A DNA stretch of 18,184 bases from a virus. This document shows positions 1-18,129 of the stretch, piece by piece. Position numbers and translations under genes: made by a program. Position 1 is the first letter of the stretch, and the number at the start of each line of letters is the position of its first letter. Location of the stretch: positions 1-18,184 of the IMG/VR virus record IMGVR_UViG_3300045988_007734. One strand, 5' to 3'. A model generated the notes under the pieces. That model was given only the letters and a program-made list of their open reading frames with translations. It did no database searches and was not told where the DNA came from.

Positions 1-55
1 TGTTGTTTTTTGGTGGTGTGGTATGATGTGAGTATCAGCCGATAGGGAAAGGAAA
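1..55. repeat. Left inverted terminal repeat (55 bp perfect)
   Basis: Bases 1-55 (TGTTGTTTTTTGGTGGTGTGGTATGATGTGAGTATCAGCCGATAGGGAAAGGAAA) are the exact reverse complement of 18130-18184. Similarity continues, with an A/T-run indel, up to the ATG at 62 (left) and 18124 (right, minus strand). Confidence 0.95.
19..27 (+). promoter_or_regulatory. Extended -10 promoter element (TGGTATGAT) inside ITR-L
   Basis: TGnTATGAT at 19-27. The SD-like GGGAAAGGAAA at 44-54 and the ATG at 62 follow. I see no convincing -35. Confidence 0.5.
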
Positions 56-61
56 TAAAAA

Positions 62-292
62 ATGAACACCGTTGTTTCGGTTGATTGGTGGCACAAGTCC
101 ATCACAGTAGCATTCACTGACTATAATACCGCGCACTATTTTTCGATAGGCAACGCCGTCACCGTCAAGGGCTCGAAGAGGCGTATGCGGCGTGAACTTC
201 GCAGGGAGACGGGCGTGGAATTGTCTAATCTGAAGTATTGGCGGACGGATGGTTCCGTTGATTATTATTGCGCAAATAGGAAAGGAGAATGA
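62..292 (+). CDS. Early hypothetical protein (76 aa, basic central stretch KGSKRRMRRELRRE)
   Basis: ATG preceded by GGGAAAGGAAA. First gene after ITR-L. Its stop overlaps the next start (ATGA). Confidence 0.7.
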   Translation: MNTVVSVDWWHKSITVAFTDYNTAHYFSIGNAVTVKGSKRRMRRELRRETGVELSNLKYWRTDGSVDYYCANRKGE

Positions 293-522
293 TTGTGAGA
301 GGGTGTTCGTATATCATTGTTGATTGGGATGGCCGCGACTATCTCCAAGTGGAGTCGCCGACTCGTAGTTATCGTGTAGTCCATGCCAAAGACTCTTATG
401 AAGCTTTGCGTAGAGTTCTTCAGATTGAAGGAGTCATATTTTACGCTCATGTTAACCTGCTCTCTTCCGAGTATAACGTTCCAAGCGGATATGTGGCTTA
501 TTATTACAAGGTGGTGTATTGA
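289..522 (+). CDS. Early hypothetical protein (77 aa)
   Basis: ATG at 289 preceded by AGGAAAGGAGA. ATGA overlap with the upstream gene suggests translational coupling. Confidence 0.7.
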   Translation: MIVRGCSYIIVDWDGRDYLQVESPTRSYRVVHAKDSYEALRRVLQIEGVIFYAHVNLLSSEYNVPSGYVAYYYKVVY

Positions 523-523
523 T

Positions 524-592
524 ATGTTCGCTTCGGTGTTTGTTATTTGCGCGTGCGTTCTTGGTGTCGCCGTCGTTTTCGGCATGGTTTGA
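524..592 (+). CDS. Candidate 22-aa hydrophobic micro-protein (MFASVFVICACVLGVAVVFGMV)
   Basis: ATG at 524 lies 9 nt downstream of AAGGTGG (508-514), directly after the stop of the previous gene. The peptide is entirely hydrophobic. It is the 3' part of track ORF 383..592; the rest of that ORF overlaps gene 289-522. Confidence 0.35.
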   Translation: MFASVFVICACVLGVAVVFGMV

Positions 593-624
593 GCGTCTTT
601 AGTCCGATAGGTGGTGATGTTGTA

Positions 625-792
625 ATGGTTGGCGTAATTGTTGCCGTTTGCATTCTTTCCATGCTGTTCCTTGTGATGGCTGCTACAGTTTTTTGCGAAT
701 TGCCGCGCAATGCGCGTGACGTTTTTTGTTTTTTGGTCATGCTCGTTGCGGTCGTGGCTGTTGTATTGGTTTCTGTAGTGAAGGAGTTTTGA
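625..792 (+). CDS. Small early membrane protein (55 aa, two predicted TM helices)
   Basis: The track ORF 547..792 starts at a TTG with no SD. The in-frame ATG at 625 lies 8 nt after AGGTGGTG (609-616). The product MVGVIVAVCILSMLFLVMAATVF...FCFLVMLVAVVAVVLVSVV has two hydrophobic segments. Confidence 0.6.
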   Translation: MVGVIVAVCILSMLFLVMAATVFCELPRNARDVFCFLVMLVAVVAVVLVSVVKEF

Positions 793-793
793 G

Positions 794-1042
794 ATGGCTT
801 ATCGTGATATGAATATTGCCGTGTTTGCGTCTCCGTTTGTTGGCGGTGGCGTAAGGTTGTGGTATTGCCCCCGTAGTCAACGTTACGAGTTGAGGTATAC
901 CGTTCAGTTCCGTACGCCGTGTGGTGGTGTGTGTGGCGCGTCGGCATTGTGTGCGTATGACGCTGGAGACGGTTCTCAGGTGGTCGATTTAATACTTGAT
1001 GCTGTTGATATCGCTAATACGCCTCTTTTAGATAGGGATTAG
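794..1042 (+). CDS. Early hypothetical protein (82 aa)
   Basis: Strong SD GAAGGAG lies 6-7 nt upstream of the ATG at 794. The gene is tightly packed with its neighbours. Confidence 0.7.
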   Translation: MAYRDMNIAVFASPFVGGGVRLWYCPRSQRYELRYTVQFRTPCGGVCGASALCAYDAGDGSQVVDLILDAVDIANTPLLDRD

Positions 1043-1044
1043 TC

Positions 1045-1248
1045 ATGTATTTTCGTGGTTGGATTCATTCGTGGACGTGTGGCAACTGTCCTGACGCTGA
1101 TGCATACTGGCGTTTGCGCGCTTTTTGGGCTGGTGCACGGCATAGGCGTAGCGCTTATAATCCGCCGAAACGGTGCTCTGATAATGCTGTGTGGTTAAAC
1201 ATGTGGTTGTATGGTGCTGGGTTTAGCGAGGATACATTGGAGTTTTAA
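1045..1248 (+). CDS. Early hypothetical protein (67 aa, Trp/Cys-rich, CGNC motif)
   Basis: ATG lies 2 nt after the upstream stop, with a weak SD (AGGGA). Confidence 0.55.
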   Translation: MYFRGWIHSWTCGNCPDADAYWRLRAFWAGARHRRSAYNPPKRCSDNAVWLNMWLYGAGFSEDTLEF

Positions 1249-1250
1249 TT

Positions 1251-1781
1251 ATGAAATTGAAGAATTTGAATTTTGATAAAAGCGATAAACGTACGAACTG
1301 GTTTGATGATGGTGTGCTGGATGATGACCGTGTGCGCCGTGTCATTCGTGGCCGTCGGCGTAGGCTGCACTTGCGCGAATATAATCGAGGTGAGGGCGAT
1401 TGGGAAACATTATGCCGTAGTATAACACTGCTCAAGAACTTTTACAAGCCTCAAGGGTCGCAAGTGGCGTTCGCCGACGGGGTGGAACATGCGGCAAACG
1501 TTTGCTTATCACTGTCCCCTTGCACATCCCGCATCGGGGCGTTGGCGCGAACTCAGGACATTGAAATGTTGGGCGGCGTTATTTATGCTCCGGCTATGGT
1601 GGCGTGGTGCGCCGTCTGTCATGTCAAGGGCGCGACATGCTACGAAATGTGCAAGGTTTGGGATGGCAACGAATTTGCTCAGACTGTCGTCAAAATCGCG
1701 TGTCGATGTTTTGACAATCTGACAGACGTGCGGTATACTGATGAAGACATTGCAAGAATGTCGCAACAGCAGCAACAATAA
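1251..1781 (+). CDS. Early hypothetical protein (176 aa) with Arg-rich N-terminal region, Cys cluster and C-terminal QQQQQ
   Basis: GGAG SD upstream of the ATG at 1251. Features are RGRRRRLHLRE, CxxCx6CxxxC (aa 120-134) and CxC (aa 151-153). This may be a zinc-binding regulator; the function is unknown. Confidence 0.75.
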   Translation: MKLKNLNFDKSDKRTNWFDDGVLDDDRVRRVIRGRRRRLHLREYNRGEGDWETLCRSITLLKNFYKPQGSQVAFADGVEHAANVCLSLSPCTSRIGALARTQDIEMLGGVIYAPAMVAWCAVCHVKGATCYEMCKVWDGNEFAQTVVKIACRCFDNLTDVRYTDEDIARMSQQQQQ

Positions 1782-1798
1782 GATAAGGTGGCATGATT

Positions 1799-2113
1799 AT
1801 GTCATACATTAAGAGAGCCAAGCATTACAGTATCGTGCGCGGCATCATGCGCGGTGAGAACGGTGAACTCGTTGATACCGAGGTAGTCGTGAATGGCGCG
1901 TGTCGTACGGCTGACATGGCTATGAAAAGAGCCCGCAAAATCAACAAGGACATGCTACCCACGTCCGCCGAATATCATGCGCAGGCAACGCGCATGGATG
2001 AAGCGATTTATTGGGCTAATTGTGAATTTGGAGATGATACCACCGTTGACTATCCGGGGCCAGTTAACGGCAACGTGGTTGAAGATGATATCATCACCGA
2101 GGAAAATAATTAA
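1799..2113 (+). CDS. Early hypothetical protein (about 104 aa, acidic C-terminus)
   Basis: The track ORF starts at 1793. The ATG at 1799 has better spacing (7 nt) from AAGGTGG (1785-1791). The start is uncertain by 2 codons. Confidence 0.7.
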   Translation: MSYIKRAKHYSIVRGIMRGENGELVDTEVVVNGACRTADMAMKRARKINKDMLPTSAEYHAQATRMDEAIYWANCEFGDDTTVDYPGPVNGNVVEDDIITEENN

Positions 2114-2140
2114 CAACCCCTATAAGGAAAGGCAACACTA

Positions 2141-2578
2141 ATGGCTGACAACGAACTGACCGTAACAAACGGCAACAACTTTTCCGCAAACGGCACCAAC
2201 GCCGTATCCCACTTCTTCGATACTTCCACGATGGACGGGAAAATGGCGCTGTACACCGCCATGCAGACCGCCGATAAGATAGATGAACACCTTAATGAAC
2301 CGTTGCATGTTACCAACGTGCTGGCGCAGGCCATCGAGGTCGCCAATCAGGAGACTGGCGAAATCAATTCGTCTACCCGCGTAGTCGTTCACGCGGAGGA
2401 AGGCGATTTCGCCGCCGCCTCCCCCACGCTGGCGCACGCATTCGGCAATCTGTTCGCCATTTTCGGCACGCCGGACACGTGGAGCCAGCCACTTGCTCTC
2501 AAGGTGGTGGAAAAGAAGAGTCGTCGTGGCTACAAGTTCTTCGACCTTGAACTAGTGTCGGAAGGCAAGCGTAAGTAA
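2141..2578 (+). CDS. Early protein (145 aa); possible ssDNA/DNA-binding replication accessory protein (position-based guess only)
   Basis: AAGGAAAGG SD. It is the last gene before the TP/DNAP pair, the slot occupied by the SSB/DBP genes in phi29. I recognise no diagnostic motif. Confidence 0.75.
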   Translation: MADNELTVTNGNNFSANGTNAVSHFFDTSTMDGKMALYTAMQTADKIDEHLNEPLHVTNVLAQAIEVANQETGEINSSTRVVVHAEEGDFAAASPTLAHAFGNLFAIFGTPDTWSQPLALKVVEKKSRRGYKFFDLELVSEGKRK

Positions 2579-2606
2579 CACGATTGTCCGCACCGTATGA
2601 TATCGT

Positions 2607-2632
2607 GGCAACGTCCCTATAGGGATGTTGCC
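2607..2632 (+). promoter_or_regulatory. Stem-loop (11-bp stem, TATA loop) in the 2579-2698 intergenic region
   Basis: GGCAACGTCCC-TATA-GGGATGTTGCC, with one G-U pair. Confidence 0.6.
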
Positions 2633-2640
2633 GCCAGACT

Positions 2641-2680
2641 CACCCCCCGCCGTTTCCATCCTTGCGGCGAGGGGTGTTTC
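2641..2680 (+). terminator. Candidate intrinsic terminator/attenuator upstream of the terminal-protein gene
   Basis: CACCCCcCGCCG-12 nt loop-CGGCGaGGGGTG gives 6+5 bp with one mismatch, followed by TTTC. The T-tract is short. Confidence 0.45.
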
Positions 2681-2698
2681 ATACTCACAGGAGGAACC

Positions 2699-3643
2699 GT
2701 GGCAAAACGCAAAAACCGTCGACGCGCTGACAATCTGAAACGCAACGCCGCAATCAGATCGGCACAGGTACGCCGGGAACGAGCAGTCAGAGATTACAGC
2801 GCCGGACGTCTACCCAAGCAAATTACTGAAACGTTCTTGGGGAATCTCAGTGCCCAACAGCTTGAGCAGGTGGCACGACGCATTGGGCGGGAATTTGGAG
2901 AACAACAGCAAGCCTTAAGGGCGCAGGATAACGAGCCGTATCAGGTCGTTCCAGACGTTCATGTTACGAAACTTGACCGTGAGATGGCGTCGCGTCCGCT
3001 GATAACCGATGCGGAAATCGCCGCAGCCCCGTCGAAACGTCGGAAAACGTTACGGCAGCAGCAGCGCCGCCGAGTTGAGGCACGGCAGAAAATCAAGCGT
3101 GCTCAACAATTCGAAGCCTTGAGTATGGCCCGTTATACCGTAGGTGAGATGCGTGAGATGGAACGCGCAGGGGAGTCTCCGTTTGATGTGCTGGGCACTC
3201 ATACGGTCGGCGGTTCGGCACGTGACGAACTCATGCGAAGCCGTGCGAACGTGTTCGGCACAGAGCGTGGAATAAGCCATGCACGCGCGATGATTCGAGG
3301 GGGGAGCCGTAGGAGGCTTGAACGGGAGATGATTGAATACGCCGGACTTATTGGACGTGCGCCGCTAAGCGCGGGAACTAGGCGTATTCCCGAGGACGAG
3401 GGTGTTTCGGATTTCGATAAGGTCGCGCAACAGCTCGAAGCGTTCGATTCCAGCGTAGCTCAAAGACTCGCTTCTTTGTCTAACCGTCAAAAACGATGGC
3501 TGATAAACAACACGAATTTCAGCGTTGTCGTGCGCGAGGCTACATGGTATAATGACAAGGCGCACAAATGGGAGACCAAAGCGGACGCGGGAGATGTAGA
3601 GACACGACTTGATGAATGGATGGCCAGCGCAATAAGACACTAA
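2699..3643 (+). CDS. Terminal protein (TP) candidate, 314 aa
   Basis: It lies immediately upstream of the protein-primed DNAP, like gene 3 before gene 2 in phi29. The N-terminus is strongly basic (VAKRKNRRRADNLKRNAAIRSAQVRRERAVR) and Arg-rich helical segments follow. A GTG start at 2699 lies 4 nt after AGGAGGAA. The upstream in-frame extension to 2597 runs through two stem-loops and has no SD. The function rests on synteny, size and charge only. Confidence 0.55.
   Translation: MAKRKNRRRADNLKRNAAIRSAQVRRERAVRDYSAGRLPKQITETFLGNLSAQQLEQVARRIGREFGEQQQALRAQDNEPYQVVPDVHVTKLDREMASRPLITDAEIAAAPSKRRKTLRQQQRRRVEARQKIKRAQQFEALSMARYTVGEMREMERAGESPFDVLGTHTVGGSARDELMRSRANVFGTERGISHARAMIRGGSRRRLEREMIEYAGLIGRAPLSAGTRRIPEDEGVSDFDKVAQQLEAFDSSVAQRLASLSNRQKRWLINNTNFSVVVREATWYNDKAHKWETKADAGDVETRLDEWMASAIRH
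3545..3553 (+). promoter_or_regulatory. Possible internal extended -10 (TGGTATAAT) about 105 nt upstream of the DNAP start
   Basis: TGGTATAATGAC matches TGCTATAATGAC at 5112-5123 in 11 of 12 positions. It lies inside the TP coding sequence and may be fortuitous. Confidence 0.3.
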
Positions 3644-3658
3644 AAAAAGGATGGAATC

Positions 3659-5119
3659 ATGCGAGAGCGTCGAACGGCGGCAACAGACGGCGCAACACTA
3701 TTGACGGATGACGGTATAACGCCATTGACGGCGAATGCCGTTATCCGCCTGACCATGCTAGACCATCATACGCGCGTATGGTGCGCTCACGGATGGCAGG
3801 ATATCAAGCCCATAGCCGCTGAACTATTAAAACGACTGCCATTGCAATCGAATCCGGCAAAGGATGGCGTTTGGGGTACGTTCAACATTCGCGGTCATTT
3901 CTATAGTTTCCGCGTGCGCATGGGCGGCATCACCGTGGATTTTCTGGACGTGCGCAACATCACACGCGATGACGGATTGAATGTTTCGCGTGAAGCATTT
4001 GGTGGCGCGGACGACTTGGAAACCACGTGGAATATCGCGCGGGAATGTGAGGCCCTGAATCTCAAGGGTACAACCATAGCGTCTATGGCAATGGGCGATT
4101 ACATCGGCGGAGATTACGCCGGATTTAAACGCAATTTTCCGCCATTGGATAAAGCGGAATATCACCGGATGCGCCGCGCGTACTATGGGGCGATAGTGTA
4201 CAGCAGGCCGGGCGAATATCGGGATTGCAGGAGCTGGGATGTGAACAGCCTCTATCCGAGCATCATGCGAGACCTTGCCATGCCGGTAGGCGCTCCTGTA
4301 TGGTATGGGGGAGAATATCATTATGACGCCGATTATCCCCTGCATATCGATGTTATCGCGTTCGACGCGCGACTGAAACCGGGAAAAACGGCGACGCTCA
4401 CAAATATCCTACCAGTATGGGGATATGAGGGCGAACGTCTGGACAGTACGCTAGGGGTCGTCACCATGCCCGTGACCGACGTGGATTGGCAGACCTTGAC
4501 GGAAAACTATGATGTCCATGTGTGGGATTATATCGGCGGTTGGAAATTCCGTAAATCGCATGGACTTTATTACAGCTACGTTGACAAATGGTTCCACGTG
4601 AAACAGACCGCAACCGGAGAGCGTCGGCAAATGGCGAAACTATTACTAAACTCGCTGGTAGGGAAATTCGGGGCATCGCTTTATCGGCCTATGCTGCATC
4701 CGAAGCCTTCCGGCGACGGCGGCGTGGATTTTACAGTGGACAAACCTGAGTCAACCAACTCACTCGCATGGCTACCGACCGCCGCCTATGTCAACGCCTA
4801 CGGTCGGCAAATACTGTCCCGCGCAATGAATGCGAACGCCGACCGCGTGCTCTACGCCGACACGGACGGCATGATATTGGACGGACTGGATGCGCCCGCA
4901 GGTATCGAAACGGACGATAAGAAACTAGGCGCGTGGAAAAACGACCACACCTATGGAAAACTTCGTATCCTCGGCAATCGCAAATACTGCGGTGTGGAAA
5001 CGGACGGCGATACCGTCATGAGGTTGAGTGGCGTGCATCGAGCAGCCCCCATACCCTACGACGACTTCCTGCCGAGGTCACGCCATGTCAACGATGACGG
5101 ATGTTTTTTTGTGCTATAA
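3659..5119 (+). CDS. Family-B, protein-primed (phi29-type) DNA polymerase, 486 aa
   Basis: Motif A DVNSLYPS (aa 194-201), motif B KLLLNSLVGKFG (327-338), motif C LYADTDG (398-404) and KxY (RKY, 441-443). Inter-motif spacings are within 1-2 residues of phi29 DNAP, so TPR1/TPR2-sized insertions are retained. The pre-motif-A stretch FKRNFPPLDKAEYHRMRRAYYGAIV parallels phi29 FKKVFPTLSLGLDKEVRYAYRGGF. SD AAGGATGG. Confidence 0.92.
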   Translation: MRERRTAATDGATLLTDDGITPLTANAVIRLTMLDHHTRVWCAHGWQDIKPIAAELLKRLPLQSNPAKDGVWGTFNIRGHFYSFRVRMGGITVDFLDVRNITRDDGLNVSREAFGGADDLETTWNIARECEALNLKGTTIASMAMGDYIGGDYAGFKRNFPPLDKAEYHRMRRAYYGAIVYSRPGEYRDCRSWDVNSLYPSIMRDLAMPVGAPVWYGGEYHYDADYPLHIDVIAFDARLKPGKTATLTNILPVWGYEGERLDSTLGVVTMPVTDVDWQTLTENYDVHVWDYIGGWKFRKSHGLYYSYVDKWFHVKQTATGERRQMAKLLLNSLVGKFGASLYRPMLHPKPSGDGGVDFTVDKPESTNSLAWLPTAAYVNAYGRQILSRAMNANADRVLYADTDGMILDGLDAPAGIETDDKKLGAWKNDHTYGKLRILGNRKYCGVETDGDTVMRLSGVHRAAPIPYDDFLPRSRHVNDDGCFFVL

Positions 5120-5120
5120 T
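5112..5120 (+). promoter_or_regulatory. Perfect extended -10 promoter (TGCTATAAT) overlapping the DNAP stop codon
   Basis: TG-C-TATAAT at 5112-5120, preceded by a T7 run. The predicted transcription start is near 5127. Confidence 0.55.
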
Positions 5121-5126
5121 GACCGG

Positions 5127-5290
5127 TAGCGGGGTGTGCGTCCCAAGCTGATTCAATGGCCCGACCGGTGGGCAATCGGTAAGGCGATTCGGTCGGATGT
5201 AGACGTGCGTAGCCAACGCCCATTGACGGCGAGGGAACCCGCACAGCCTAGCAATCCGGCACGGCAGCGTGATTGCCGCCGTGCCATTTT
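5127..5290 (+). ncRNA. Candidate structured non-coding RNA or leader (about 164 nt) with a three-way-junction-like fold
   Basis: There is no plausible ORF in 5120-5305. The region is bounded by the extended -10 at 5112-5120 and a terminator at 5258-5290. A long closing helix and two internal hairpins can be drawn by hand (see findings). Confidence 0.5.
5258..5290 (+). terminator. Intrinsic terminator at the early/late boundary
   Basis: GGCACGGCaGC-GTGATT-GCcGCCGTGCC gives 10 bp plus one A/C mismatch, followed by ATTTTACTT. It ends 16 nt before the scaffold gene ATG. Confidence 0.6.
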
Positions 5291-5305
5291 ACTTAAGAGG
5301 TGATT

Positions 5306-5647
5306 ATGGACGACACCGAAAATGATGACAAGCCGGACACCACGCCCGACACCGAGCCGGACGCGAACGCCGACGACAATACGCCGAACCCGGAGCCTGA
5401 AACGCAGGACGACGCCGAGCCTGAAGACGCGGGCGACGACAAAACCGCCGACATGGCCGGCCGGTTGAGCGCATTGGAGGCGACCGTGGCGGAACTGTCC
5501 AAAACCGTCGAGGCGATGCGCGACGCGGCAGCAGACCACGTGCTGCACGACGGCCCCGATGATGACGCGACGCCGGAATCGGCTGAAATGACCGACGACG
5601 ACTACAACGGCACCTACAGCACGTTCGACGACTTGTACGAAGACTGA
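5306..5647 (+). CDS. Scaffolding protein candidate (113 aa, highly acidic with a central helical LSALEATVAELSKTVEAMRDAAA segment)
   Basis: It lies immediately upstream of the major capsid gene, as phi29 gp7 does. The protein is small and acidic with a coiled-coil-like core. ATG at 5306 follows AAGAGGTGA; the track start at 5300 is a GTG. Confidence 0.6.
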   Translation: MDDTENDDKPDTTPDTEPDANADDNTPNPEPETQDDAEPEDAGDDKTADMAGRLSALEATVAELSKTVEAMRDAAADHVLHDGPDDDATPESAEMTDDDYNGTYSTFDDLYED

Positions 5648-5669
5648 CAATTAGGAAGGAACAACTATC

Positions 5670-7400
5670 ATGGCAACCACCCCAGTGGTGACGCCGAAGC
5701 AGCAACTGCGCCCGCTCACCGAATTCAACAACGCCCAGATTTTGAACATGATTCGCAACGAGGCGTCACCAGAGTACCAGAGGCGCATGCCCTCGGCCAC
5801 TCAGATGAATATGGACAGGCAGATGGCCACACTTATGTCGTCCACCCAGCTGAAGAACGAATTTTACTCGGCATTGGTGAACCGTATTGGCGGCACCTAC
5901 GTGAATACGTGGCGGTGGAACAATCCGCTCAGCGTTTTCCAGCGTGCATCGCAGGCGTATGGCGACACGTGGCAGGAAATCGCCGTGGGAATGCCGCTTG
6001 CACAGGTCTATGACCCTGACGCGGAGTACCTCGGTGCGGACAACTTCCGCAAGTGGAAAATCGACGTGGATTCACTCTATCACCGTCTGGACTTTGCTCA
6101 CTGGTATCCTGCGACCACGGATGACAAGACGCTCCAGCGTGCCTTCACGTCCGAAAACGGTTTGGCATCGCTCACCTCCCAGATTCTCACATCCTGCTAT
6201 AACGCGGCTGAAGTAGACTTGTTCGAGGCTCTGTGCCATCAGTTCGTCGAGTACGCGAAGCTCGGCGGATATTGGCGCGTCCACATGGCCAAAGACCTGA
6301 ACAACATGGGCAGTTCGGAAACCGACGCCCGCGACATGTTGCGTCAGATTCGCGCATGGGCGGACACGCTAAAATTCGTTTCCACCAAGTACAACGCCCG
6401 TCACATGCCAACCTTTGCCCGCCCGGACGAACTCGTGCTGTTCTGTTCGCCAGAAGTCAAGTCGGCGCTTGACGTGCAGGGCCTTGCCACGGTATTCCAG
6501 CGTACCGACGCCGAGCCGACCATCGACCGAATTATAGTCATTCCGCAGGACCGTTTCGGCATGAATGGCGTGCAGGCCATTCTGACGACCGACAAGTTCC
6601 TGATTGACATTCCTGTCATCAACGAGATGACCCAGCAGACCAACCCCGTCAACATCAATTCGGTCAACCATTATCTGCATGTCCAGCACATTATTTCGGT
6701 GTCCGGCTTCGCTCCGGCTGTGATGTTCTGGACTGGAGCAGGTTCTACCGCCAACGTGGTGCCCCCTGCCGGAACGCAGGCCAAGACGCCGACATTCGAG
6801 CTCAAACTCGCCATGTACGGTGGTGGCACGGAAACCCCGAGCAATGTGGCGCGCGGTGGCGCGGTGCAGGTCACCGCCGATACGACTATCGGCAACGACG
6901 GTACCGCCACGTTCCGTTCGAACGCGGTTGAATATCGCATTGGCGATACTGTTAAGCCGAAGAGCGATTACACGTATATCTCGCCTACCGGCGTGCTGGT
7001 GGTCGGCCTTGACGAACCGAACACCACCATCCCGATTACCGCAACCGCCTTGTACACGAACCCGGCGACGCCGGAAGTGCCGGGCACCGTGTCCGCAGCT
7101 CTGGACGTGCCGGTGGTCGGTGATGGCGTCATTGGCTTCAACCCCTCCATCATCGCGTCCATTGCCGTGACCGTTCCGAACGTGACCGTAGAACATACGG
7201 CGCAGGCTACTGCCGTGGCGACCATGATTGACGGACGTACCGCCGACGTGACCGCACAGGCCGCATGGACGTCCGGCACTCCGACGAGCGCCACCGTATC
7301 CGAGTCCGGCATGGTGACTGGCGTCAAGGCAGGCAGCTCTGATATCACCGCCACGCTGTTCGGCGTGTCCGGTAAGAAGAGTGTGACCGTGACCGCGTGA
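5670..7400 (+). CDS. Major capsid protein (phi29 gp8-like) with C-terminal Ig-like/Big_2 decoration domains
   Basis: YNAAEVDLFEAL and NHYLHVQHIISVSGFAPAVMF resemble phi29 gp8 YNSAEVDEYEYM and NYYLHVWQTLSASRFANAVAF. The last ~80 aa (ASIAVTV...TAQAAWTSGTPTSATVSESGMVTGVKAGSSDITATLFGVSGKKSVTVTA) form a typical Big_2 domain, which phi29 gp8 also carries. SD AGGAAGGA. Confidence 0.9.
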   Translation: MATTPVVTPKQQLRPLTEFNNAQILNMIRNEASPEYQRRMPSATQMNMDRQMATLMSSTQLKNEFYSALVNRIGGTYVNTWRWNNPLSVFQRASQAYGDTWQEIAVGMPLAQVYDPDAEYLGADNFRKWKIDVDSLYHRLDFAHWYPATTDDKTLQRAFTSENGLASLTSQILTSCYNAAEVDLFEALCHQFVEYAKLGGYWRVHMAKDLNNMGSSETDARDMLRQIRAWADTLKFVSTKYNARHMPTFARPDELVLFCSPEVKSALDVQGLATVFQRTDAEPTIDRIIVIPQDRFGMNGVQAILTTDKFLIDIPVINEMTQQTNPVNINSVNHYLHVQHIISVSGFAPAVMFWTGAGSTANVVPPAGTQAKTPTFELKLAMYGGGTETPSNVARGGAVQVTADTTIGNDGTATFRSNAVEYRIGDTVKPKSDYTYISPTGVLVVGLDEPNTTIPITATALYTNPATPEVPGTVSAALDVPVVGDGVIGFNPSIIASIAVTVPNVTVEHTAQATAVATMIDGRTADVTAQAAWTSGTPTSATVSESGMVTGVKAGSSDITATLFGVSGKKSVTVTA

Positions 7401-7406
7401 TATAAT
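7398..7406 (+). promoter_or_regulatory. Extended -10-like element (TGATATAAT) overlapping the capsid stop codon
   Basis: It is part of the exact 12-mer GTGATATAATGG (7397-7408), which is repeated at 9815-9826. It abuts the hairpin at 7407-7434, so promoter activity is uncertain. Confidence 0.35.
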
Positions 7407-7434
7407 GGGAGGGTAGCCGATTGGCTACTCTCTC
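7407..7434 (+). terminator. Stem-loop immediately after the capsid gene (12-bp stem including G-U pairs, GATT loop)
   Basis: GGGAGGGTAGCC-GATT-GGCTACTCTCTC. There is no clean U-tract. Confidence 0.45.
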
Positions 7435-7450
7435 TCACGGTGTGATGCAG

Positions 7451-7495
7451 GACAAGGCCCGAAGCGTAATCTACGTGAGCGCTCCGGGCCTTGTC
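7451..7495 (+). terminator. Strong GC-rich stem-loop (11-bp perfect stem) upstream of the tail-knob gene
   Basis: GACAAGGCCCG-23 nt-CGGGCCTTGTC. There is no U-tract. The 3' arm ends 5 nt before the GGAGGA SD at 7501-7506. Confidence 0.5.
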
Positions 7496-7508
7496 ATACC
7501 GGAGGACA

Positions 7509-9818
7509 ATGATGATTGACGACGCTAACCCTTACGTGGAATCTAATTTTTCGTGGGCGGAATGGACGCCTAACACGACACTGAAACTCTGCCGTGTACC
7601 GTGGGATGCTTCATATCGTGATGTTGTGCGGTTTGTTTCACGTGAAACGCAGCGAGAATGGTTCGACAAACTGGGTGGAGTGGAATGCCGTCCGGCCACC
7701 ATGCATATTTTCGGCGCCCCCGTTCGCATCGACATGCCATTCAACCAAGCGTCAAACTACAATTATCTTGTGGCCGTCAACGATTACCCCGAATTGGAAT
7801 CGCCACGCGCATGGTATTACTTTATTGAATCCGTGGAATACATCAACGCGCACACCACACAGCTCACGCTTATGCTGGACGTATGGCAAAGTTTCGAGTT
7901 TGACGTGAGTTTCGGTAGTTGCTATGTGACGCGCGGTCATATCGGCATAGCCAATGAACGCCAGTGGGATGATTACGGGCGTACCACGCTTGCACTGCCG
8001 GAGGGTTTGGACACCGGCGCGGAAACCGTCATTACCTCACAGTCATATACGCCGCTTGTGACCAGCAAGCCCGTGCAGCCCGGGTTTAACTCGCCAACCT
8101 TGGATTATGGTGTCATTGTCGTGGCCACGACCGACCTTGTGGCGTCGGGCGGTAGTACCGAAAAACCGTCGTTGAAAACCGCGCAAGGCTCACAATTCGA
8201 GAATCAATCCAATGGCGCGGGGATTTATTATTTTGACACCGCCGACGATTTTACGCGCGTTATGCAGGCAGGTAGTTCGTACCCGTGGGTCACTCAGGGC
8301 ATTACGGCGATTTACGCCATCCCCAAAATCAGCGCCGACTATATCCGCAGCGCAGGCCATGAGGTGACGCAATTTTTTGGCAACGACGTGGCCGGTGTGG
8401 TTAAAGGCCACGTCTACACGTTCCTGTGGGAAGCAAAGAGCGATAACCGATATGATGATATTGTTTCCATCAAGAATTTTCGTAACAATTTTAACATTCC
8501 GAGCCGGTATCGCAATTTGAAAAAATTGCAATGCTACCCGTATAGTGTCGTGGAATGTTCATGCTTGAATGGCTCGAATGTCATCTACCGGCCCGAGGAT
8601 ATCCAATCCAATGACCTGACCATACGTGAAACGTGGAATTACGCGCCCCCGTCCCCTCGGCTGAATTTTTACCCGGTGGACTACAATGCGGGAGGCGCAG
8701 CTACGGTCAGCTCCCCGTCCGGGAATGGCACAGGTCTGCCGATTGATGGCGGGGAAATGCTTAATGTCAGTTTCGGTATCACAAACTTTCCCCAGTTTAT
8801 GGCGGTCAACAATGGGGCCGCGCTTGCTATGGCGAACAGCGCGTACTCTCGCGCTTACGCGGAGCAGTCTGCCGGTTGGGCGCAGCAAAAAGCGACCATG
8901 AGCGCAGCCAACGCATTATCTCAGGCCGGCACTGCGATTCGCACTCAGCAAGAGATGACCCAACTGGGTATCACGAACCGTAACGCGCTGAACGCCATCG
9001 CAGCCAACTCACTTAACCAGTCGTTGGCTATCGGGCAGGCGAGCACCAATGCCATGACCAACTTGAACGTATCGCAAAACAACGCGCGAACCACGTGGGG
9101 GTTGATTTCCAATGCGGGGAACGCATTGGCGTCGGGGAGCGTGGCCGGACTGATTGGCGGCGCAGTCGGCGCCATCGGCGGCGTCGTGCAGAACGACATT
9201 GCCAACAAGGGACTGTACGCCAGCCGTGACATTGCCAACGATACGGCAGCGGCGAACACTGCCAACAGTGTGGCAACCAATGCGGCGCAAACCTCGCAAG
9301 CGAACACTTACGCGCAACGCGCCCAGCAGATTCAGAGCACGTCCAGCGCCCTGATGGCCGGGCAAAACTATCGACTGGCCACGCGCTTTGCCGAAGGTGA
9401 CTATGAAAACTCGATAGCCGGGATTAACGCTCAAGTCCAGCAAATGCAGATGACTCCGCCGACTACGAGCGGTTCGGCGGGCGGCGACTCGTTCAACCTC
9501 GCTAACGGTATTATGGGCATATTGGTTCGTTTCCGCACGTGCGCCCCCAGCGCGTTGCGTTCGGTGGGCGAGTTCATGCTACGTTTCGGGTATTTTGTCC
9601 AGCGGTTCGTCACCCCGCCCGCAAGTCTGCAATGCATGGAGAAATTCACATACTGGCAAATGCAGGAATGCTACATTAAAGGTACACTGCCCGAACAGGC
9701 GCGGCTGACCATTAAGGGCATGTTCGAGCGAGGCGTCACCGTATGGAGCAGACCGGAGGATATCGGCGTGACCGACTGGGCGGACAACGAGCCACTGCCG
9801 GGCATTGGTTACGAGTGA
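7509..9818 (+). CDS. Tail knob / distal tail tube protein (phi29 gp9-like), about 769 aa
   Basis: The N-terminal pattern NYNYLVAVNDYPELESPRAWYYFIESVEYINAHTTQLTLMLDVWQSF parallels phi29 gp9 [44 protein letters not shown]. Its position between capsid and portal matches phi29. The start is ATG 7509 or 7512 after GGAGGA; the track start at 7491 is a TTG inside the hairpin. Confidence 0.8.
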   Translation: MMIDDANPYVESNFSWAEWTPNTTLKLCRVPWDASYRDVVRFVSRETQREWFDKLGGVECRPATMHIFGAPVRIDMPFNQASNYNYLVAVNDYPELESPRAWYYFIESVEYINAHTTQLTLMLDVWQSFEFDVSFGSCYVTRGHIGIANERQWDDYGRTTLALPEGLDTGAETVITSQSYTPLVTSKPVQPGFNSPTLDYGVIVVATTDLVASGGSTEKPSLKTAQGSQFENQSNGAGIYYFDTADDFTRVMQAGSSYPWVTQGITAIYAIPKISADYIRSAGHEVTQFFGNDVAGVVKGHVYTFLWEAKSDNRYDDIVSIKNFRNNFNIPSRYRNLKKLQCYPYSVVECSCLNGSNVIYRPEDIQSNDLTIRETWNYAPPSPRLNFYPVDYNAGGAATVSSPSGNGTGLPIDGGEMLNVSFGITNFPQFMAVNNGAALAMANSAYSRAYAEQSAGWAQQKATMSAANALSQAGTAIRTQQEMTQLGITNRNALNAIAANSLNQSLAIGQASTNAMTNLNVSQNNARTTWGLISNAGNALASGSVAGLIGGAVGAIGGVVQNDIANKGLYASRDIANDTAAANTANSVATNAAQTSQANTYAQRAQQIQSTSSALMAGQNYRLATRFAEGDYENSIAGINAQVQQMQMTPPTTSGSAGGDSFNLANGIMGILVRFRTCAPSALRSVGEFMLRFGYFVQRFVTPPASLQCMEKFTYWQMQECYIKGTLPEQARLTIKGMFERGVTVWSRPEDIGVTDWADNEPLPGIGYE

Positions 9819-9824
9819 TATAAT
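9816..9824 (+). promoter_or_regulatory. Extended -10 element (TGATATAAT) placed 6 nt upstream of the portal ATG
   Basis: TATAAT at 9819-9824, then GGCAAT, then the ATG at 9831. The 12-nt intergenic gap has no SD, which is consistent with a leaderless portal mRNA. Confidence 0.45.
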
Positions 9825-9830
9825 GGCAAT

Positions 9831-10781
9831 ATGAGTAGGTCTAAAAAGAATCGAGTTGGCGGCGCGTTGCACCCACGTGGCAATTATGCGAAAGCACGCG
9901 CCGCCACGCTTGATGACATGTATTTTCATTTGCTGATGGAACTCGCATTGAACCGTTTCAGTTGGCGCGGATTGCCGCCCACCGTGGACGAACGTTGGCT
10001 GGAAATATGTCTGTGCGAATATGGTTGCGCGTTGTTTTTCGAAGACAAGCGTATCGGCAGGTTCCTTGTAACGCAGGCCGGTTATCAAGGTCGGCTGAAC
10101 GTGTACAATAATCCAACATGCTTCGAGCCGGTAGGCGTCAACTACCATTATAAGCAGCTCAAAGCAGGGGCGGAATGCATTCCTATCTGGGATAATCGAA
10201 TGCGCGTCGGATTCAAGCCGACATTATGGCAATACGCACGACGACTTGCCGATATCGACAAGGCGTATGATGTGAATTTGGAGAGTCTTAAGCTGCCTAC
10301 CATCATCACTGCCGACCCCCGCACAAAACTCACCGTGCAGAACATGCTTCAGCAGCGTCAGGACGGTCAGGACTATATTATCGGATACGATTCGCTCGAC
10401 CCCGGCAGCATGTTTCAACCGTGGCCGAACACTACGCCTTACCTGCTGGACAAGTTCATCCAACAGAAAGCGCAGGTCACTAACGAAGTGCTAGGATATC
10501 TCGGCATCCAATCATCCGGCACGGAGAAAAAGGAACGGCTTATCTCCGACGAAGTGGCGCAAGCCAACGAGAAAGTAGATGTGTTCCGACTGAGTTTCCT
10601 GAAGGCGCGGCAGACGGCGGCAACTGAGATTAACCGATTATGGCCGCAACTGAACGTGTGGGTGGAGTATGCTGACGCGCAAAGCTCCGGCGTGCCCAAC
10701 GCGCTTGACTCTAGCGCTTCGGGCACGACGGATGTTGACATGCCCGCATCATACGACGCGGGCACTGGAGGTGTATTGTGA
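9831..10781 (+). CDS. Portal (head-tail connector / upper collar) protein, phi29 gp10-like, 316 aa
   Basis: FSWRGLPPT (phi29 FEWENLPPT), VYNNPT, and GTEKKERLISDEVAQANE (phi29 LEKKERMVTDEVSSNDE). The size matches gp10 (309 aa). Confidence 0.9.
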   Translation: MSRSKKNRVGGALHPRGNYAKARAATLDDMYFHLLMELALNRFSWRGLPPTVDERWLEICLCEYGCALFFEDKRIGRFLVTQAGYQGRLNVYNNPTCFEPVGVNYHYKQLKAGAECIPIWDNRMRVGFKPTLWQYARRLADIDKAYDVNLESLKLPTIITADPRTKLTVQNMLQQRQDGQDYIIGYDSLDPGSMFQPWPNTTPYLLDKFIQQKAQVTNEVLGYLGIQSSGTEKKERLISDEVAQANEKVDVFRLSFLKARQTAATEINRLWPQLNVWVEYADAQSSGVPNALDSSASGTTDVDMPASYDAGTGGVL

Positions 10782-11566
10782 CACAGGATTTTAGCGCCTA
10801 CGCTATGGAGACTCCCGGCGAGTACACCGAAACCCTCGGTAATCTTATTGCATTCGGATATGACACCGACGACAAGCTGCATCTTAGCGCCGACTATTAC
10901 CCGATTTACCGCGAAGACCATCGCGCAGAGTTGAACGAGAAGATCGTCCGCCATTACACGCTTAGGGAGATTGGTCAGGAAACCGCCCAACAGTTCATTT
11001 TTTACTTGGGAATGACAATGGCGGAAATCATGCCCTATTTTAACGAGCGCTACCGGACGCTGGACATGGAATACAACCCGTTGGATTCCATGGACATGAC
11101 GACGGACAGCGAGAGCGGCAGCGAATCACAGTCGTCCGGCAAAGCATCCAGTACGCAGGATTCAACCAGCTCCAGCAATAGCAAGTCGGACAATTCCAGC
11201 ACCACCACGTCGAAGAGTTTTGACAGTGACGTGCCTCAGACCGGCGTCATAGGCGATTTCGCCCGCTACGCCTCACATGCGAACGAATCGCAGGCGGACA
11301 GCTCCGGCACCGCGTCCAGTTCGCAGGATTCAAGCAGCCACACCACCGCGCAAAGCGCGACCGACTACCAACACGATTCAAGCAATTCCAAAGGCAAAAG
11401 CCACGTGACCGGGCGTAGCCAGAGCGCTATGAGCCTGATTCAGGAATACCGGCAGGCGATTATCAACGTGGACATGGAAATCGTGCGGAATCTTGAGCCG
11501 TGTTTCATGCAGGTATGGGGCACGTATGATACAATCTTTAACAACCACCATAACTATGGAGGGTGA
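10778..11566 (+). CDS. Lower collar protein (phi29 gp11-like), 262 aa
   Basis: GTGA start/stop overlap with the portal gene, with GGAGG 8 nt upstream. IYREDHRAELNEKIVRHYTLREIGQETAQQFIFYLGMTMAEIMPYFNERY fits the conserved N-terminal block of Picovirinae lower collar proteins. There is a long Ser/Thr/Asp-rich central segment. The position matches phi29. Confidence 0.7.
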   Translation: MTQDFSAYAMETPGEYTETLGNLIAFGYDTDDKLHLSADYYPIYREDHRAELNEKIVRHYTLREIGQETAQQFIFYLGMTMAEIMPYFNERYRTLDMEYNPLDSMDMTTDSESGSESQSSGKASSTQDSTSSSNSKSDNSSTTTSKSFDSDVPQTGVIGDFARYASHANESQADSSGTASSSQDSSSHTTAQSATDYQHDSSNSKGKSHVTGRSQSAMSLIQEYRQAIINVDMEIVRNLEPCFMQVWGTYDTIFNNHHNYGG

Positions 11567-11574
11567 AAGTAATC

Positions 11575-12210
11575 ATGGTCGACATTAATGCACTAATCCC
11601 ACGGCAACGCTTGTTCGACGGAGTGCCCACGTCCGTACCGTTCACCTACCGGGACGGCTTGACGACATTGCAGTTAATTGAATGCCTGAAGCATAATCTA
11701 GACACGCTTCAGTGCGACCTTAGCAGGTTGGAAGACGCCACCACCGACCTCGCGACATCTGTAGACAAGGCTCTGGCGGATACCGTGGCACAGCTCAATC
11801 ATGACATGGCCGCGTTGCGTGCGGAATTGCTCTCGCTGATTCATGAGATGGAGCAGCAGGGTGCGGCGACGTCGCCGGTCTACGGCATCACGCAACCGCT
11901 CGGGCAAGTACTGGGCGGCATGTACGACAATTTGCGCAATCATGGATTGTTCTTCGGTGATTATGATTCCATGCAGTTGACCGCGCGGGAATACGATGGG
12001 CTCACCCTCGGAGCGCGTGAATATGACTTGCGCGCCACTGCTGTGGACAATTGTGTCCCCGGCGATTTTCCGGGCCGCTCACAATTCCCCTACGGCAAGA
12101 GCATGCCTGAGAATCCACCCGCCGACATGTCGTTCATCACACAATCGGAAGCGGATGCACGATATGTCGAACGCAATCCAACCGCAGACAATTTCGACAA
12201 GAAAGGATAA
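11575..12210 (+). CDS. Virion structural protein, coiled-coil (neck/tail-associated), about 211 aa
   Basis: It sits inside the tail module. It has a helical heptad-like region (DLSRLEDATTDLATSVDKALADTVAQLNHDMAALRAELLSLIHEME) and a short tandem motif LTAREYDGLTLGAREYDL. The start is ATG 11575 or GTG 11563. Confidence 0.6.
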   Translation: MVDINALIPRQRLFDGVPTSVPFTYRDGLTTLQLIECLKHNLDTLQCDLSRLEDATTDLATSVDKALADTVAQLNHDMAALRAELLSLIHEMEQQGAATSPVYGITQPLGQVLGGMYDNLRNHGLFFGDYDSMQLTAREYDGLTLGAREYDLRATAVDNCVPGDFPGRSQFPYGKSMPENPPADMSFITQSEADARYVERNPTADNFDKKG

Positions 12211-12215
12211 CCACC

Positions 12216-12635
12216 ATGACCGCAACCAACAAGACCACGAATTACAAACTCAGCCAGTTCGTCGGCACCGACCGACCTACGTGGCTCGGGGACTACAACG
12301 GCGATATGTCGAGAATCGACACGCAACTGAAGCAGAACGCGGACGACATCGCGTCGGCAACAGCAGGCAGTCTCACCTCAGTACACCATACCGCCGACCT
12401 TACCGGCGACGGTACGTCAGGCTCACCACTTGGCGTGGCGAGCACCATCGCCAAGAAAACCGATATCCCGGACGTGAGCGGATTCGCCACCACTTCCGCT
12501 CTCACCTCGGGGCTTGCGGCCAAGGTCGATAAAAACGCCTCACAGCCCAGCACGCTCGGATTGACGGCGACCGAACTTGATTCGATGTACAAGGACGCGA
12601 ACGGCATCGTCCGCGTTGGCCACGCTAAAGCCTAG
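12216..12635 (+). CDS. Short tail appendage/fibre protein (139 aa) sharing an N-terminal adaptor with the next gene
   Basis: SD AAAGGA. The N-terminus MTATNKTTNYKLSQFVGTDRPTWLGDYNGDMSRIDTQL aligns with the N-terminus of the 12652 gene. Confidence 0.7.
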   Translation: MTATNKTTNYKLSQFVGTDRPTWLGDYNGDMSRIDTQLKQNADDIASATAGSLTSVHHTADLTGDGTSGSPLGVASTIAKKTDIPDVSGFATTSALTSGLAAKVDKNASQPSTLGLTATELDSMYKDANGIVRVGHAKA

Positions 12636-12651
12636 AAAAAGGAGAATGACA

Positions 12652-14100: not shown

Positions 14101-14123
14101 ACGTTTCACGTGAGACATAACCC

Positions 14124-14152
14124 ATACCCCACGGCTCGAAGCCGTGGGGTAT
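14124..14152 (+). terminator. Stem-loop terminator after the appendage genes (12-bp perfect stem)
   Basis: ATACCCCACGGC-TCGAA-GCCGTGGGGTAT followed by the A/T-rich ACTATTATATAT. Confidence 0.6.
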
Positions 14153-14162
14153 ACTATTATAT

Positions 14163-15428: not shown

Positions 15429-15431
15429 TAT

Positions 15432-15467
15432 AACGATAGACCGGTAGATATCTGCCGGTCTATCGTT
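15432..15467 (+). terminator. Stem-loop terminator after the tail lysin gene (13-bp perfect stem)
   Basis: AACGATAGACCGG-10 nt-CCGGTCTATCGTT. Confidence 0.6.
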
Positions 15468-15473
15468 GTCGTG

Positions 15474-15482
15474 TGATATGAT
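15474..15482 (+). promoter_or_regulatory. Extended -10 element (TGATATGAT) placed 7 nt upstream of the ATPase ATG
   Basis: GTGATATGATGG (15473-15484) differs at one base from the 12-mer at 7397 and 9815. No SD precedes the ATG at 15490. Confidence 0.45.
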
Positions 15483-15489
15483 GGATACT

Positions 15490-16587: not shown

Positions 16588-16595
16588 GGAATAAC

Positions 16596-16961
16596 ATGCC
16601 AATCCATGAATTAATCGTTATCGGCGTCGTGTTTCTATTAGTGCTCATTGACTATGTGACGGGCGTGGTCAACGCAATCATGCGCGGAGAATTATCTAGC
16701 GAGAAAATGCGGAGGGGTCTCGGCCATAAGTTCGCATACTTGGCAATTATTTGCGTCGCATTGATTGTGGAATACGGTTCGGATTACATTGACCTAGGCA
16801 TCGAACTACCGGTATTCATTCCGGTTTGCGTAGGCATTTGCCTGATTGAAATTACCTCAATCATGGAAAATTGCGTAAAAATCAATCCAGAATTAAGCGG
16901 TTCAAACATCCTGAACATTTTCAATATCGAGAGGAGGGAAAACAATGATAAAGAGGATTAA
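16596..16961 (+). CDS. Holin (phi29 gp14/TcdE-type, Phage_holin_4-like), 121 aa
   Basis: Three hydrophobic segments. LIDYVTGVVNAI...SSEKMRRGLGHKFAYL...CLIEITSIMENCVKINPE is the typical signature. ATG 16596 lies 5 nt after GTGAGGA. Confidence 0.8.
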   Translation: MPIHELIVIGVVFLLVLIDYVTGVVNAIMRGELSSEKMRRGLGHKFAYLAIICVALIVEYGSDYIDLGIELPVFIPVCVGICLIEITSIMENCVKINPELSGSNILNIFNIERRENNDKED

Positions 16962-17070
16962 AACAATCGCATACAGCGCAATTGCCGCAATCACAGCCAT
17001 ACTACTGGCATTCGAGTCATTCATGAACGTCTTTGCCCAAAACGACACGCCAAAACATAAGGAAAACTGA
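16945..17070 (+). CDS. Small membrane protein (41 aa) not in the ORF track, between holin and endolysin
   Basis: ATG 16945 lies 6 nt after GAGGAGGG. The product is MIKRIKTIAYSAIAAITAILLAFESFMNVFAQNDTPKHKEN, with a basic N-terminus, one TM segment and a polar tail. It overlaps the holin 3' end by 17 nt and stops 2 nt before the endolysin ATG. Confidence 0.55.
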   Translation: MIKRIKTIAYSAIAAITAILLAFESFMNVFAQNDTPKHKEN

Positions 17071-17072
17071 AT

Positions 17073-17870: not shown

Positions 17871-17884
17871 CGGAACATAAGAAA

Positions 17885-17912: not shown

Positions 17913-17923
17913 ATTGTTATCCA

Positions 17924-18124: not shown

Positions 18125-18129
18125 TTTAT

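Follow-up and report, generated by a model that had tools for sequence, protein, structure and literature searches.

We have analysed a viral stretch of DNA of 18,184 nucleotides (nt), positions 1 to 18,184 of the IMG/VR record IMGVR_UViG_3300045988_007734, which we refer to as "the window", and we are concerned here with the RNA that is encoded in the gap between two of its genes: the gene of the protein-primed type B DNA polymerase (DNAP) and the scaffold gene. The window is a complete linear phi29-like genome with a G+C content of 53.9%, bounded by inverted terminal repeats of 61 nt (positions 1-61 and 18124-18184, complementarity 97%), and presumably relies on protein-primed replication; its plus strand carries every gene bar one, the sole minus-strand open reading frame (ORF) being located at 17924-18124. 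The gap occupies positions 5120-5305 and, at 186 nt, exceeds every other non-coding stretch of the genome, the next two measuring 111 and 90 nt. The elements that precede the RNA are, in this order, an ORF that resembles a single-stranded DNA-binding protein (SSB), an ORF of the size of a terminal protein, the DNAP gene and the promoter-like motif TGCTATAAT. Judged from the comparison of related sequences, the RNA structure of the gap is real, belongs to the plus strand, does not code for protein and is maintained by purifying selection, and it defines a new, widespread family of structured RNAs in the phi29-like phages of Actinobacteria and of gut metagenomes.

The minimum free energy (MFE) structure that RNAfold predicts for positions 5120-5292 (-78.7 kcal/mol) reproduces the helices and the three-way junction that had been drawn by hand in the first-pass annotation of the window: the closing helix contains the segments 5135-5140/5240-5245, 5141-5144/5233-5236, 5147-5150/5227-5230 and 5153-5159/5220-5226, and the hairpins are formed at 5161-5196, at 5207-5219 and, at the 3' side, at 5258-5285. 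The suggested comparison with shuffled sequences has supported this structure in part: the z-score of the whole is -2.98, with 1 of 200 shuffles being equally stable, while the part that corresponds to domain I of the phi29 packaging RNA (pRNA) reaches just -2.05 when folded alone, and the minus strand of the gap folds similarly well (z = -3.02). As the z-score of domain I is modest and the minus strand of the gap equals the plus strand in stability, the thermodynamics are suggestive, not decisive. A minus-strand RNA has been considered and rejected, and the RNA has been assigned to the plus strand, because several G-U pairs and the gene context fit the plus strand only. The parts of the RNA and the genes that surround it are collected in Table 1.

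Table 1. Parts of the gap RNA and identified genes of the window. Pair counts refer to the 32-sequence alignment described in the text.
Feature	Position	Strand	Remarks
Promoter-like extended -10 motif TGCTATAAT	5112-5120	+	Overlaps the DNAP stop codon (5117-5119); without a good -35 hexamer
Closing helix, 5' strand (A-helix analogue)	5129-5159	+	Five segments with small bulges or internal loops between them; MFE and pair counts
C-helix analogue, 5' strand CCGACCGG	5161-5168	+	Pairs with 5189-5196
5'-side bulge UGGGCA (CE-loop or right-hand-loop analogue)	5169-5174	+	GGC (5171-5173) complementary to GCC of the second-hairpin loop
E-helix analogue AUCG/CGAU, 4 bp	5175-5188	+	Capped by the 6-nt loop GUAAGG (5179-5184)
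C-helix analogue, 3' strand UCGGUCGG	5189-5196	+	MFE and pair counts
Unpaired strand of the three-way junction AUGUAGACGU	5197-5206	+	Near-invariant within the window clade
Second hairpin (D-helix analogue) GCGU/ACGC	5207-5219	+	5-nt loop AGCCA (5211-5215); directly stacked on the closing-helix 3' strand
Closing helix, 3' strand	5220-5252	+	3-nt bulge ACC (5237-5239)
3' hairpin, 12 bp, G+C-rich (domain II or terminator-like)	5258-5285	+	Loop region GUGAUUG (5269-5275) conserved
Spacer with the scaffold ribosome-binding site AAGAGG (5295-5300)	5286-5305	+	Scaffold ATG at 5306
Protein-primed type B DNA polymerase (DNAP)	3659-5119	+	PF03175, profile search
phi29-type major capsid protein	5670-7400	+	PF25622, E = 8e-86
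Tail knob	7491-9818	+	Profile searches
phi29 gp10-type connector	9831-10781	+	PF05352, E = 3e-42
phi29 gp16-type packaging ATPase	15466-16587	+	PF05894, E = 4e-44
Amidase	17073-17870	+	Profile searches

The evidence that carries the structure is comparative. Our set of close relatives consists of 80 IMG/VR contigs whose capsid proteins are 91-97% identical to that of the window; the gap has been found in 79 of the 79 whose fetched locus reaches it (locus L036, which starts 26 nt upstream of the capsid gene, has been excluded from the count), with an identity of 85-97%. The core of the gap, i.e. positions 5140-5259, is conserved at 93-97.5%, versus 85-92% in the flanking ends of the DNAP and scaffold genes. 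The view that the gap contains no credible ORF has been upheld: of 78 close relatives, only 6 have an unbroken copy of the 55-amino-acid ORF (GTG start codon, positions 5136-5303), insertions and deletions of single bases are frequent, and no reading frame of the gap remains open across clades.

The search for compensatory changes, proposed together with the original fold, has given the clearest result. In a 32-sequence alignment (A4), to which the structure was given by hand, 92.8% of the cells are paired, versus 31-41% in the control, where the partners have been slid, and 19 of the 42 pairs have changed on both sides, versus 1-5 with slid partners. The closing helix accounts for nine of the double-changed pairs, with 97.2% of the cells being paired in helix 1 and 88.5% in helix 2; in helix 3, the analogue of the C helix of phi29 pRNA, six of eight pairs are double-changed and 96.1% of the cells are paired, with further compensatory changes occurring within the clade of locus L082; in helix 4, the analogue of the E helix, two of four pairs are compensated. 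The second hairpin shows UA in 48, CG in 15 and UG in 14 sequences at the alignment pair 95/101, and a single change from G-C to U-A at the pair 91/102. The stem of the 3' hairpin contains four pairs with double changes (GC/AU, 24 and 33; CG/UA, 38; AU/CG, 5), and its loop region GUGAUUG is invariant in the window clade despite these changes. Almost half of the RNA positions differ from the window in the clade with 82% capsid identity, where all helices are kept.

A covariance model built from three clades of the same alignment, which we refer to as R1, extends these observations: with the filters off, it matches the clade of locus L176 (56% capsid identity) at the expected place (E = 5e-6 and 2e-5), and it also matches, weakly, the phage BadAargau2 (E = 0.21) and locus L175 (E = 0.54). 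With the default filters, R1 matches only the clades that were used to build it. A match derived from R1 at L046 5406-5507 (E = 0.29) has been rejected as false; BadAztec1 was missed in the same round.

The architecture is also found well beyond the window clade. Protein searches with the capsid protein have retrieved relatives with 87%, 82%, 69%, 64%, 56% and 45-47% identity, and in each distant-clade contig obtained in this way, 170-195 nt separate the DNAP and scaffold genes; the gap opens with TG[C/T]TAT[A/G][A/G]T, lying across the stop codon of the DNAP gene, and closes with a strong hairpin. Taken overall, gaps of 124-194 nt with the same architecture occur in the loci L081, L082, L175, L180, L176, L096, L100, L178 and L182, as well as in the cultured phages BadAztec1, BadAargau2, Grotle, Ayka, Reje, Penne, Pize and Tillums; the position of the RNA is constant, just upstream of the scaffold and capsid genes, down to a capsid identity of about 40%. 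A 4-bp helix with a 6-nt loop is kept at the E arm in all clades, the apical loops being UUGAAU, UUGAAA, UUAGGU, UUAAGU, UUCGGU and GUAAGG. Three scans of IMG/VR with capsid proteins of the intermediate clades have returned contigs of the window clade only.

Among the cultured phages of GenBank, the nearest relatives found by tblastn are the Bifidobacterium asteroides phages BadAztec1 and BadAargau2 (44%), which are identical to two metagenome loci of our set, followed by phages of Curtobacterium, Rhizobium and Arthrobacter (38-41%). The gap carries no annotation in any of the cultured-phage records that we have examined, our literature search has found no report of the RNA element, and the paper on the Curtobacterium phage Ayka does not mention pRNA. 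In the Curtobacterium phages Grotle, Ayka, Reje, Penne and Pize and in the Arthrobacter phage Tillums, the architecture is located directly upstream of the scaffold gene, and a small extra ORF lies between the DNAP gene and the RNA (e.g. L205 2193-2435 in Grotle and L211 1601-1834 in Tillums). The extra ORF of Tillums is annotated as a ribbon-helix-helix DNA-binding protein, and its product possibly regulates the switch to the late genes. The phi29-like Rhizobium phage RHph_N3_8, which has a Gram-negative host, has a gap of 155 nt (L210 1958-2112) with a 16-bp hairpin, upstream of a scaffold-like gene; the first part of this gap has no obvious fold into the same three-way junction.

With respect to the transcription of the RNA, the extended -10 motif reported in the first-pass annotation has been confirmed at its coordinates. 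All clades of the Bifidobacterium type keep the motif, as TG[C/T]TAT[A/G][A/G]T, despite variation in the DNAP codons before it and in the DNAP C-terminus, and in these clades it is probably a promoter. A scan for consensus promoters has omitted TGCTATAAT owing to its poor -35 region, and in the Curtobacterium phages the extended -10 motif is not evident.

At the other end of the RNA, where an intrinsic terminator had been proposed, the hairpin and its covarying stem have stood up to comparison, but the U-rich tail has not: the window has AUUUU after the hairpin, and most relatives read CCACTTACTT or CCATCTACCT at this place, with CCACUUACUU, CCAUCUACCU and CAUACCUUAAAC also being listed. A canonical intrinsic terminator is therefore unsupported, as the G+C-rich hairpin is present and a conserved U run is not; the terminator scan likewise reports only a weak partial site at the gap. 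Only about 20 nt, which include the ribosome-binding site, separate the hairpin from the scaffold gene, so that a separate late promoter has no space there and late transcription must traverse the hairpin. The 3' hairpin is thus unlikely to act as a complete terminator, and the discrete promoter-to-terminator RNA of 164 nt that had been predicted is not established. Intrinsic terminators that lack a U tail have been reported for Actinobacteria, and the hairpin of the family resembles them in being perfect, G+C-rich, 12-17 bp long and located at the end of the RNA, with a covarying stem; it differs from a plain terminator in that the GUGAUUG loop is conserved across clades on differing stems, and in that incomplete termination is required of it.

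Two further observations concern this end of the RNA. The GUGAUUG loop recurs on different stems in the 3' hairpins of loci L175, L176 and L180 (56-69% capsid identity), and no pairing partner of this loop has survived the comparison among relatives. The complementarity between GGCAATC (5171-5177) and GATTGCC (5271-5277), previously taken as a possible sign of an alternative fold or an intermolecular contact, is present in the window, but single-base insertions (GGCAAATC, GGCAAGTC) break the pairing in many relatives while the loop remains invariant. We have likewise rejected that the linker GCAAUC (5251-5256) pairs with this loop: the clade mostly reads GCAAAC, and a connection of 1 nt cannot span the 12-bp stem. 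In addition, a motif similar to CACCUAC or CACUUAC is found right after the 3' hairpin (5286-5302 in the window; also in L081, L175, L178 and L180), where small hairpins occur in the MFE folds; the motif can pair with the Shine-Dalgarno sequence AGGUG of the scaffold gene and, on these predicted folds, could control the translation of the scaffold.

In phi29 pRNA, pairing takes place between the bulge (AACC) of one molecule and the D loop (GGUU) of the adjacent one. We have found a comparable complementarity in the gap RNA, between the 5'-side bulge and the loop of the second hairpin. In the window it amounts to just 3 bp, between GGC (5171-5173) and GCC (5212-5214), and the bulge GGC is invariant in the window clade except in L012. 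In other clades, it extends to 4-5 bp, different sequences occur at the two sites, and the Watson-Crick complementarity covaries: UGGCA/UGCCA in L082, GACUA/UAGUC in L175, CACAC/GUGUG in L096 and UUGCA/UGCAA in Grotle and Ayka, while CGC/GCG in Reje and Penne represents, at one position, a change from U-A to C-G relative to Grotle. Across 13 clades, the mean match of a bulge with its cognate loop is 3.6 nt, versus 2.7 nt with non-cognate loops (permutation p about 0.0009, with some of the loops having been delimited by hand). As for the small number of pairs, two G-C loop pairs are enough for activity in phi29 (PMC12670572).

We consider that the most likely role of the gap RNA, with a probability of roughly 0.55, is that of a pRNA analogue, and we infer a packaging function by analogy with phi29. 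As the reference we have used the phi29 structure obtained by running the Rfam model RF00044 on phi29, which, as a positive control, scores 145 bits. Read from the 5' end, phi29 pRNA has a bulged closing helix of about 22 bp, followed after a single unpaired base by the C helix; the 5' side then bulges by 9 nt ahead of the E helix (4 bp), whose loop UUGAGU has 6 nt, and the junction UUU leads to a 6-bp D helix with a 5-nt loop. In the window RNA, the closing helix measures about 26 bp and is likewise followed by a single unpaired base and a helix of 8 bp; here the 5'-side bulge has 6 nt, the helix beyond it 4 bp and its loop 6 nt, and a junction of 10 nt leads to a 4-bp hairpin with a 5-nt loop. 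In both, the two ends are paired in a long bulged helix, the arms of the three-way junction follow in the identical order, and no spacer separates the second hairpin (the D helix of phi29) from the 3' strand of the closing helix. The resemblance to pRNA that was first noticed by eye thus extends to the arm order, the 5'-side bulge, the 4-bp helix with its 6-nt loop, the stacked second hairpin and the covarying bulge-loop contact. A topology filter for this layout, written after both RNAs had been seen, is passed by phi29 pRNA, by 6 of 11 family members (the window and five clade representatives) in their plain MFE folds and by 0 of 4800 shuffled sequences; the MFE and consensus folds, the pair counts and the filter all assign the domain I architecture to the window RNA.

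The protein partners of pRNA are present as well: the connector and the gp16 ATPase of the window phage are both phi29-type, as had been recognised from the sequence, and the PHROG matches for the capsid protein, the connector and the ATPase are consistent with those of Pfam. The connector's N-terminus (MSRSKKNRVGG) is basic, as is the RNA-binding N-terminal tail of phi29 gp10. In the mechanism that we propose, a structured RNA of about 130 nt and the 3' hairpin, about 160 nt in all, would be the counterpart of the phi29 prohead RNA. Transcription would start a few bases past the conserved TGnTATAAT, and the RNA would be released through partial termination or processing at the 3' hairpin, with part of the transcripts continuing into the late genes. 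Copies of the RNA would then form a ring by intermolecular pairing of bulge and loop, and the ring, seated on the phi29-type connector with its basic N-terminus, would dock the gp16-type ATPase for DNA packaging. To the broader proposal that pRNA is an ancestral part of the phi29-type motor, and that the Actinobacteria phages hold a second, divergent lineage of it, which is made at the 5' end of the late transcript and assembles into a ring through clade-specific bulge-loop pairing, we give an even chance.

Several observations weigh against a pRNA analogue. The position of the RNA is different: phi29 pRNA lies at the left genome end, and the gap RNA is found mid-genome, adjoining the 5' side of the scaffold gene and read in the direction of the late genes. 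Within the fold, the strand between the arms is 10 nt long, in place of UUU, and the closing helix carries its 3-nt bulge on the opposite strand, i.e. on the 3' strand in the window. The test against the Rfam pRNA model, which had been recommended at the outset, was negative: with E-values up to 10, RF00044 does not match the whole window, the isolated gap or the gaps of L180, Tillums and Grotle, and R1 in turn does not match phi29. Since the covariance models match in neither direction, neither homology with the Bacillus pRNAs nor membership of RF00044 has been established; however, as the known pRNAs share a sequence identity of only about 12% (PMC5066667), this failure is weak evidence against common descent. 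The Lactococcus phi29-like phage asccphi28 reportedly shows no evidence of a pRNA and is thought to manage without one (PMC7823558). As for the bulge-loop contact, apart from the hand-delimited loops of the cognate comparison, a shuffle test of the 3-5-nt bulge complementarity in single sequences is not significant (phi29 itself gives p = 0.64), L176, L178 and L100 have no clear complementarity, and, in sequence terms, the complementarity fits a contact between molecules and one within a molecule alike.

The main rival to the pRNA analogue follows from the fate of the transcript, because the RNA is either released or retained as the 5' leader of the late mRNA. In the latter case, the RNA would be a cis-acting structured leader of the late operon (scaffold, capsid and tail genes), involved in antitermination of the put or EAR type, in the protection of the mRNA 5' end or in the control of scaffold translation, and the bulge-loop pairing would be a tertiary contact within one molecule; we regard this as possible, though doubtful. 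It would account for the location of the RNA, which adjoins the scaffold gene on its upstream side in all cases, including those in which an extra ORF parts it from the DNAP gene; this location also counts against a pRNA. In the same direction point the short distance from the hairpin to the scaffold ribosome-binding site, which leaves a late promoter no space, so that late transcripts must contain or traverse the RNA, the lack of a conserved U tract after the 3' hairpin, and the ability of the CACCUAC-like motif to pair with the Shine-Dalgarno sequence. The gap RNA is also similar to the put sites of HK022 and to the EAR element of Bacillus in its placement after a promoter-like motif and before a terminator-like hairpin, upstream of a long operon that is read through. 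A leader, however, predicts neither the point-by-point match with the pRNA layout nor the long helix that joins the two ends of the RNA; put consists of two stem-loops, about 70 nt in length, and has neither an end-to-end closing helix nor a three-way junction with a bulge-loop pair. No antitermination or leader family of Rfam matches the RNA; for the window and four gaps of the family, no other Rfam family exceeds the threshold, and the matches obtained are generic terminator-like hairpins. The two roles are, moreover, compatible, as a pRNA could be cut from the leader and thus serve both.

The remaining explanations fare less well against the same evidence. A trans-acting small RNA with another role, e.g. 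one that ties up a host protein or RNA polymerase or that controls host or phage mRNAs by base pairing, would suit a discrete structured unit that has its own promoter-like motif and 3' hairpin and highly conserved apical loops (GUAAGG and GUGAUUG); it is nonetheless unlikely, since it has no Rfam family match, no long single-stranded seed is conserved across clades, and what is conserved is the architecture and short loops, not a targeting sequence. Still less probable is an ordinary gene boundary, i.e. the terminator of the early operon followed by a late promoter, with an incidental G+C-rich fold. The promoter-like motif and the hairpin are both present, and the folding exceeds that of shuffled sequences only moderately, as described above; yet the promoter lies upstream of the structure and not 3' of the hairpin, the helices are held by compensatory changes between clades that differ at almost half of the positions, the core is conserved above the neighbouring genes, and the architecture recurs down to 40% capsid identity. 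A small protein translated from the 55-residue ORF is hardly credible: the ORF is present in the window, and it is broken in nearly all of the close relatives.

Apart from the gap RNA, a few other features of the window and its relatives deserve mention. The DNAP has a length of just 486 residues, and its Pfam and PHROG profile matches begin at about residue 133; the exonuclease part at its N-terminus has either diverged strongly or been shortened. Two abutting palindrome arms of 18 nt, AACGATAGACCGGTAGAT and ATCTGCCGGTCTATCGTT, located at 15432-15467, reach the start codon of the gp16-like ATPase and may function as an operator or form a hairpin in RNA. Symmetric hairpins of 12-14 bp, terminator-like on both strands in our scan, are located at 14123-14153 and at 17877-17920; the latter is situated between the amidase gene and the minus-strand ORF and has a weak, sub-threshold Rfam match to SpF01. 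A similarly weak match to RAGATH-28 (14.6 bits, E = 1.5) falls in the apical hairpin region of L180 (2470-2512) and is probably due to chance. The search for tRNA and tmRNA genes has found none, and the DNA search of the phage collection with positions 3659-7400 as the query has returned no match. The scan of a collection of genome contigs for relatives has also returned none, and hence no genome-based host assignment; judging by relatedness alone, the host of the window phage is probably a gut actinobacterium.

To our knowledge, no RNA other than pRNA is built into a viral DNA-packaging motor as a structural component, and RNA nanotechnology makes heavy use of pRNA. If the gap RNA is indeed a pRNA, then pRNA extends beyond the phages of Bacillus to those of Bifidobacterium, from human and bee guts, and to those of the soil genera Curtobacterium and Arthrobacter; its origin, ancestral or as a late invention in Bacillus, becomes testable; its essential features are revealed, given that nearly all nucleotides differ while three things persist, namely the layout, a 4-bp helix capped by a 6-nt loop, and the pairing of loop with loop; and new high-G+C, self-assembling three-way-junction scaffolds become available. 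Even as a leader of the late operon, the RNA would represent an unannotated, widely conserved structured RNA family of small gut and soil phages. The cultured hosts make the gap RNA directly testable.

The comparison with known systems begins with the literature that we searched, which agrees with the earlier statement that pRNA is known from Bacillus phages only (PMC5066667, PMC11476376): a structure-based search from 2025, seeded with phi29, GA1 and DLc1, has added 12 pRNAs, and the phages named in the part of that report that we consulted are those of Bacillus (PMC12670572), as is consistent with the account of PMC7823558. The hosts of the gap RNA are different, namely Actinobacteria (Bifidobacterium, Curtobacterium, Arthrobacter), together with human gut sources. 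In its parts, too, the gap RNA departs from phi29 pRNA: the bulge has 6 nt and not 9, the stem of the small hairpin has 4 bp and not 6, and the 3' hairpin has no conserved U tract. The phages themselves are of the same type, with a protein-primed linear genome of about 18-20 kb and a phi29-type capsid protein, connector and gp16. In phi29, the genes of SSB, terminal protein and DNAP, the three small genes 1C/1B/1A, promoter A1 and the pRNA follow one another on one strand; once the inversion of the early operon is allowed for, the gap RNA is likewise located downstream of the DNAP gene, co-directional with it and behind a promoter-like motif. The two RNAs are also alike in size, about 130 nt and a 3' hairpin in the window as compared with a domain I of 120 nt and a domain II, 174 nt in total, in phi29, and the linker and hairpin at the 3' side of the window RNA occupy the position of domain II. 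Lastly, the apical loops UUGAAU and UUGAAA of L175, L180, Tillums and Grotle are close to the UUGAGU of phi29, at the same place of the same arm.

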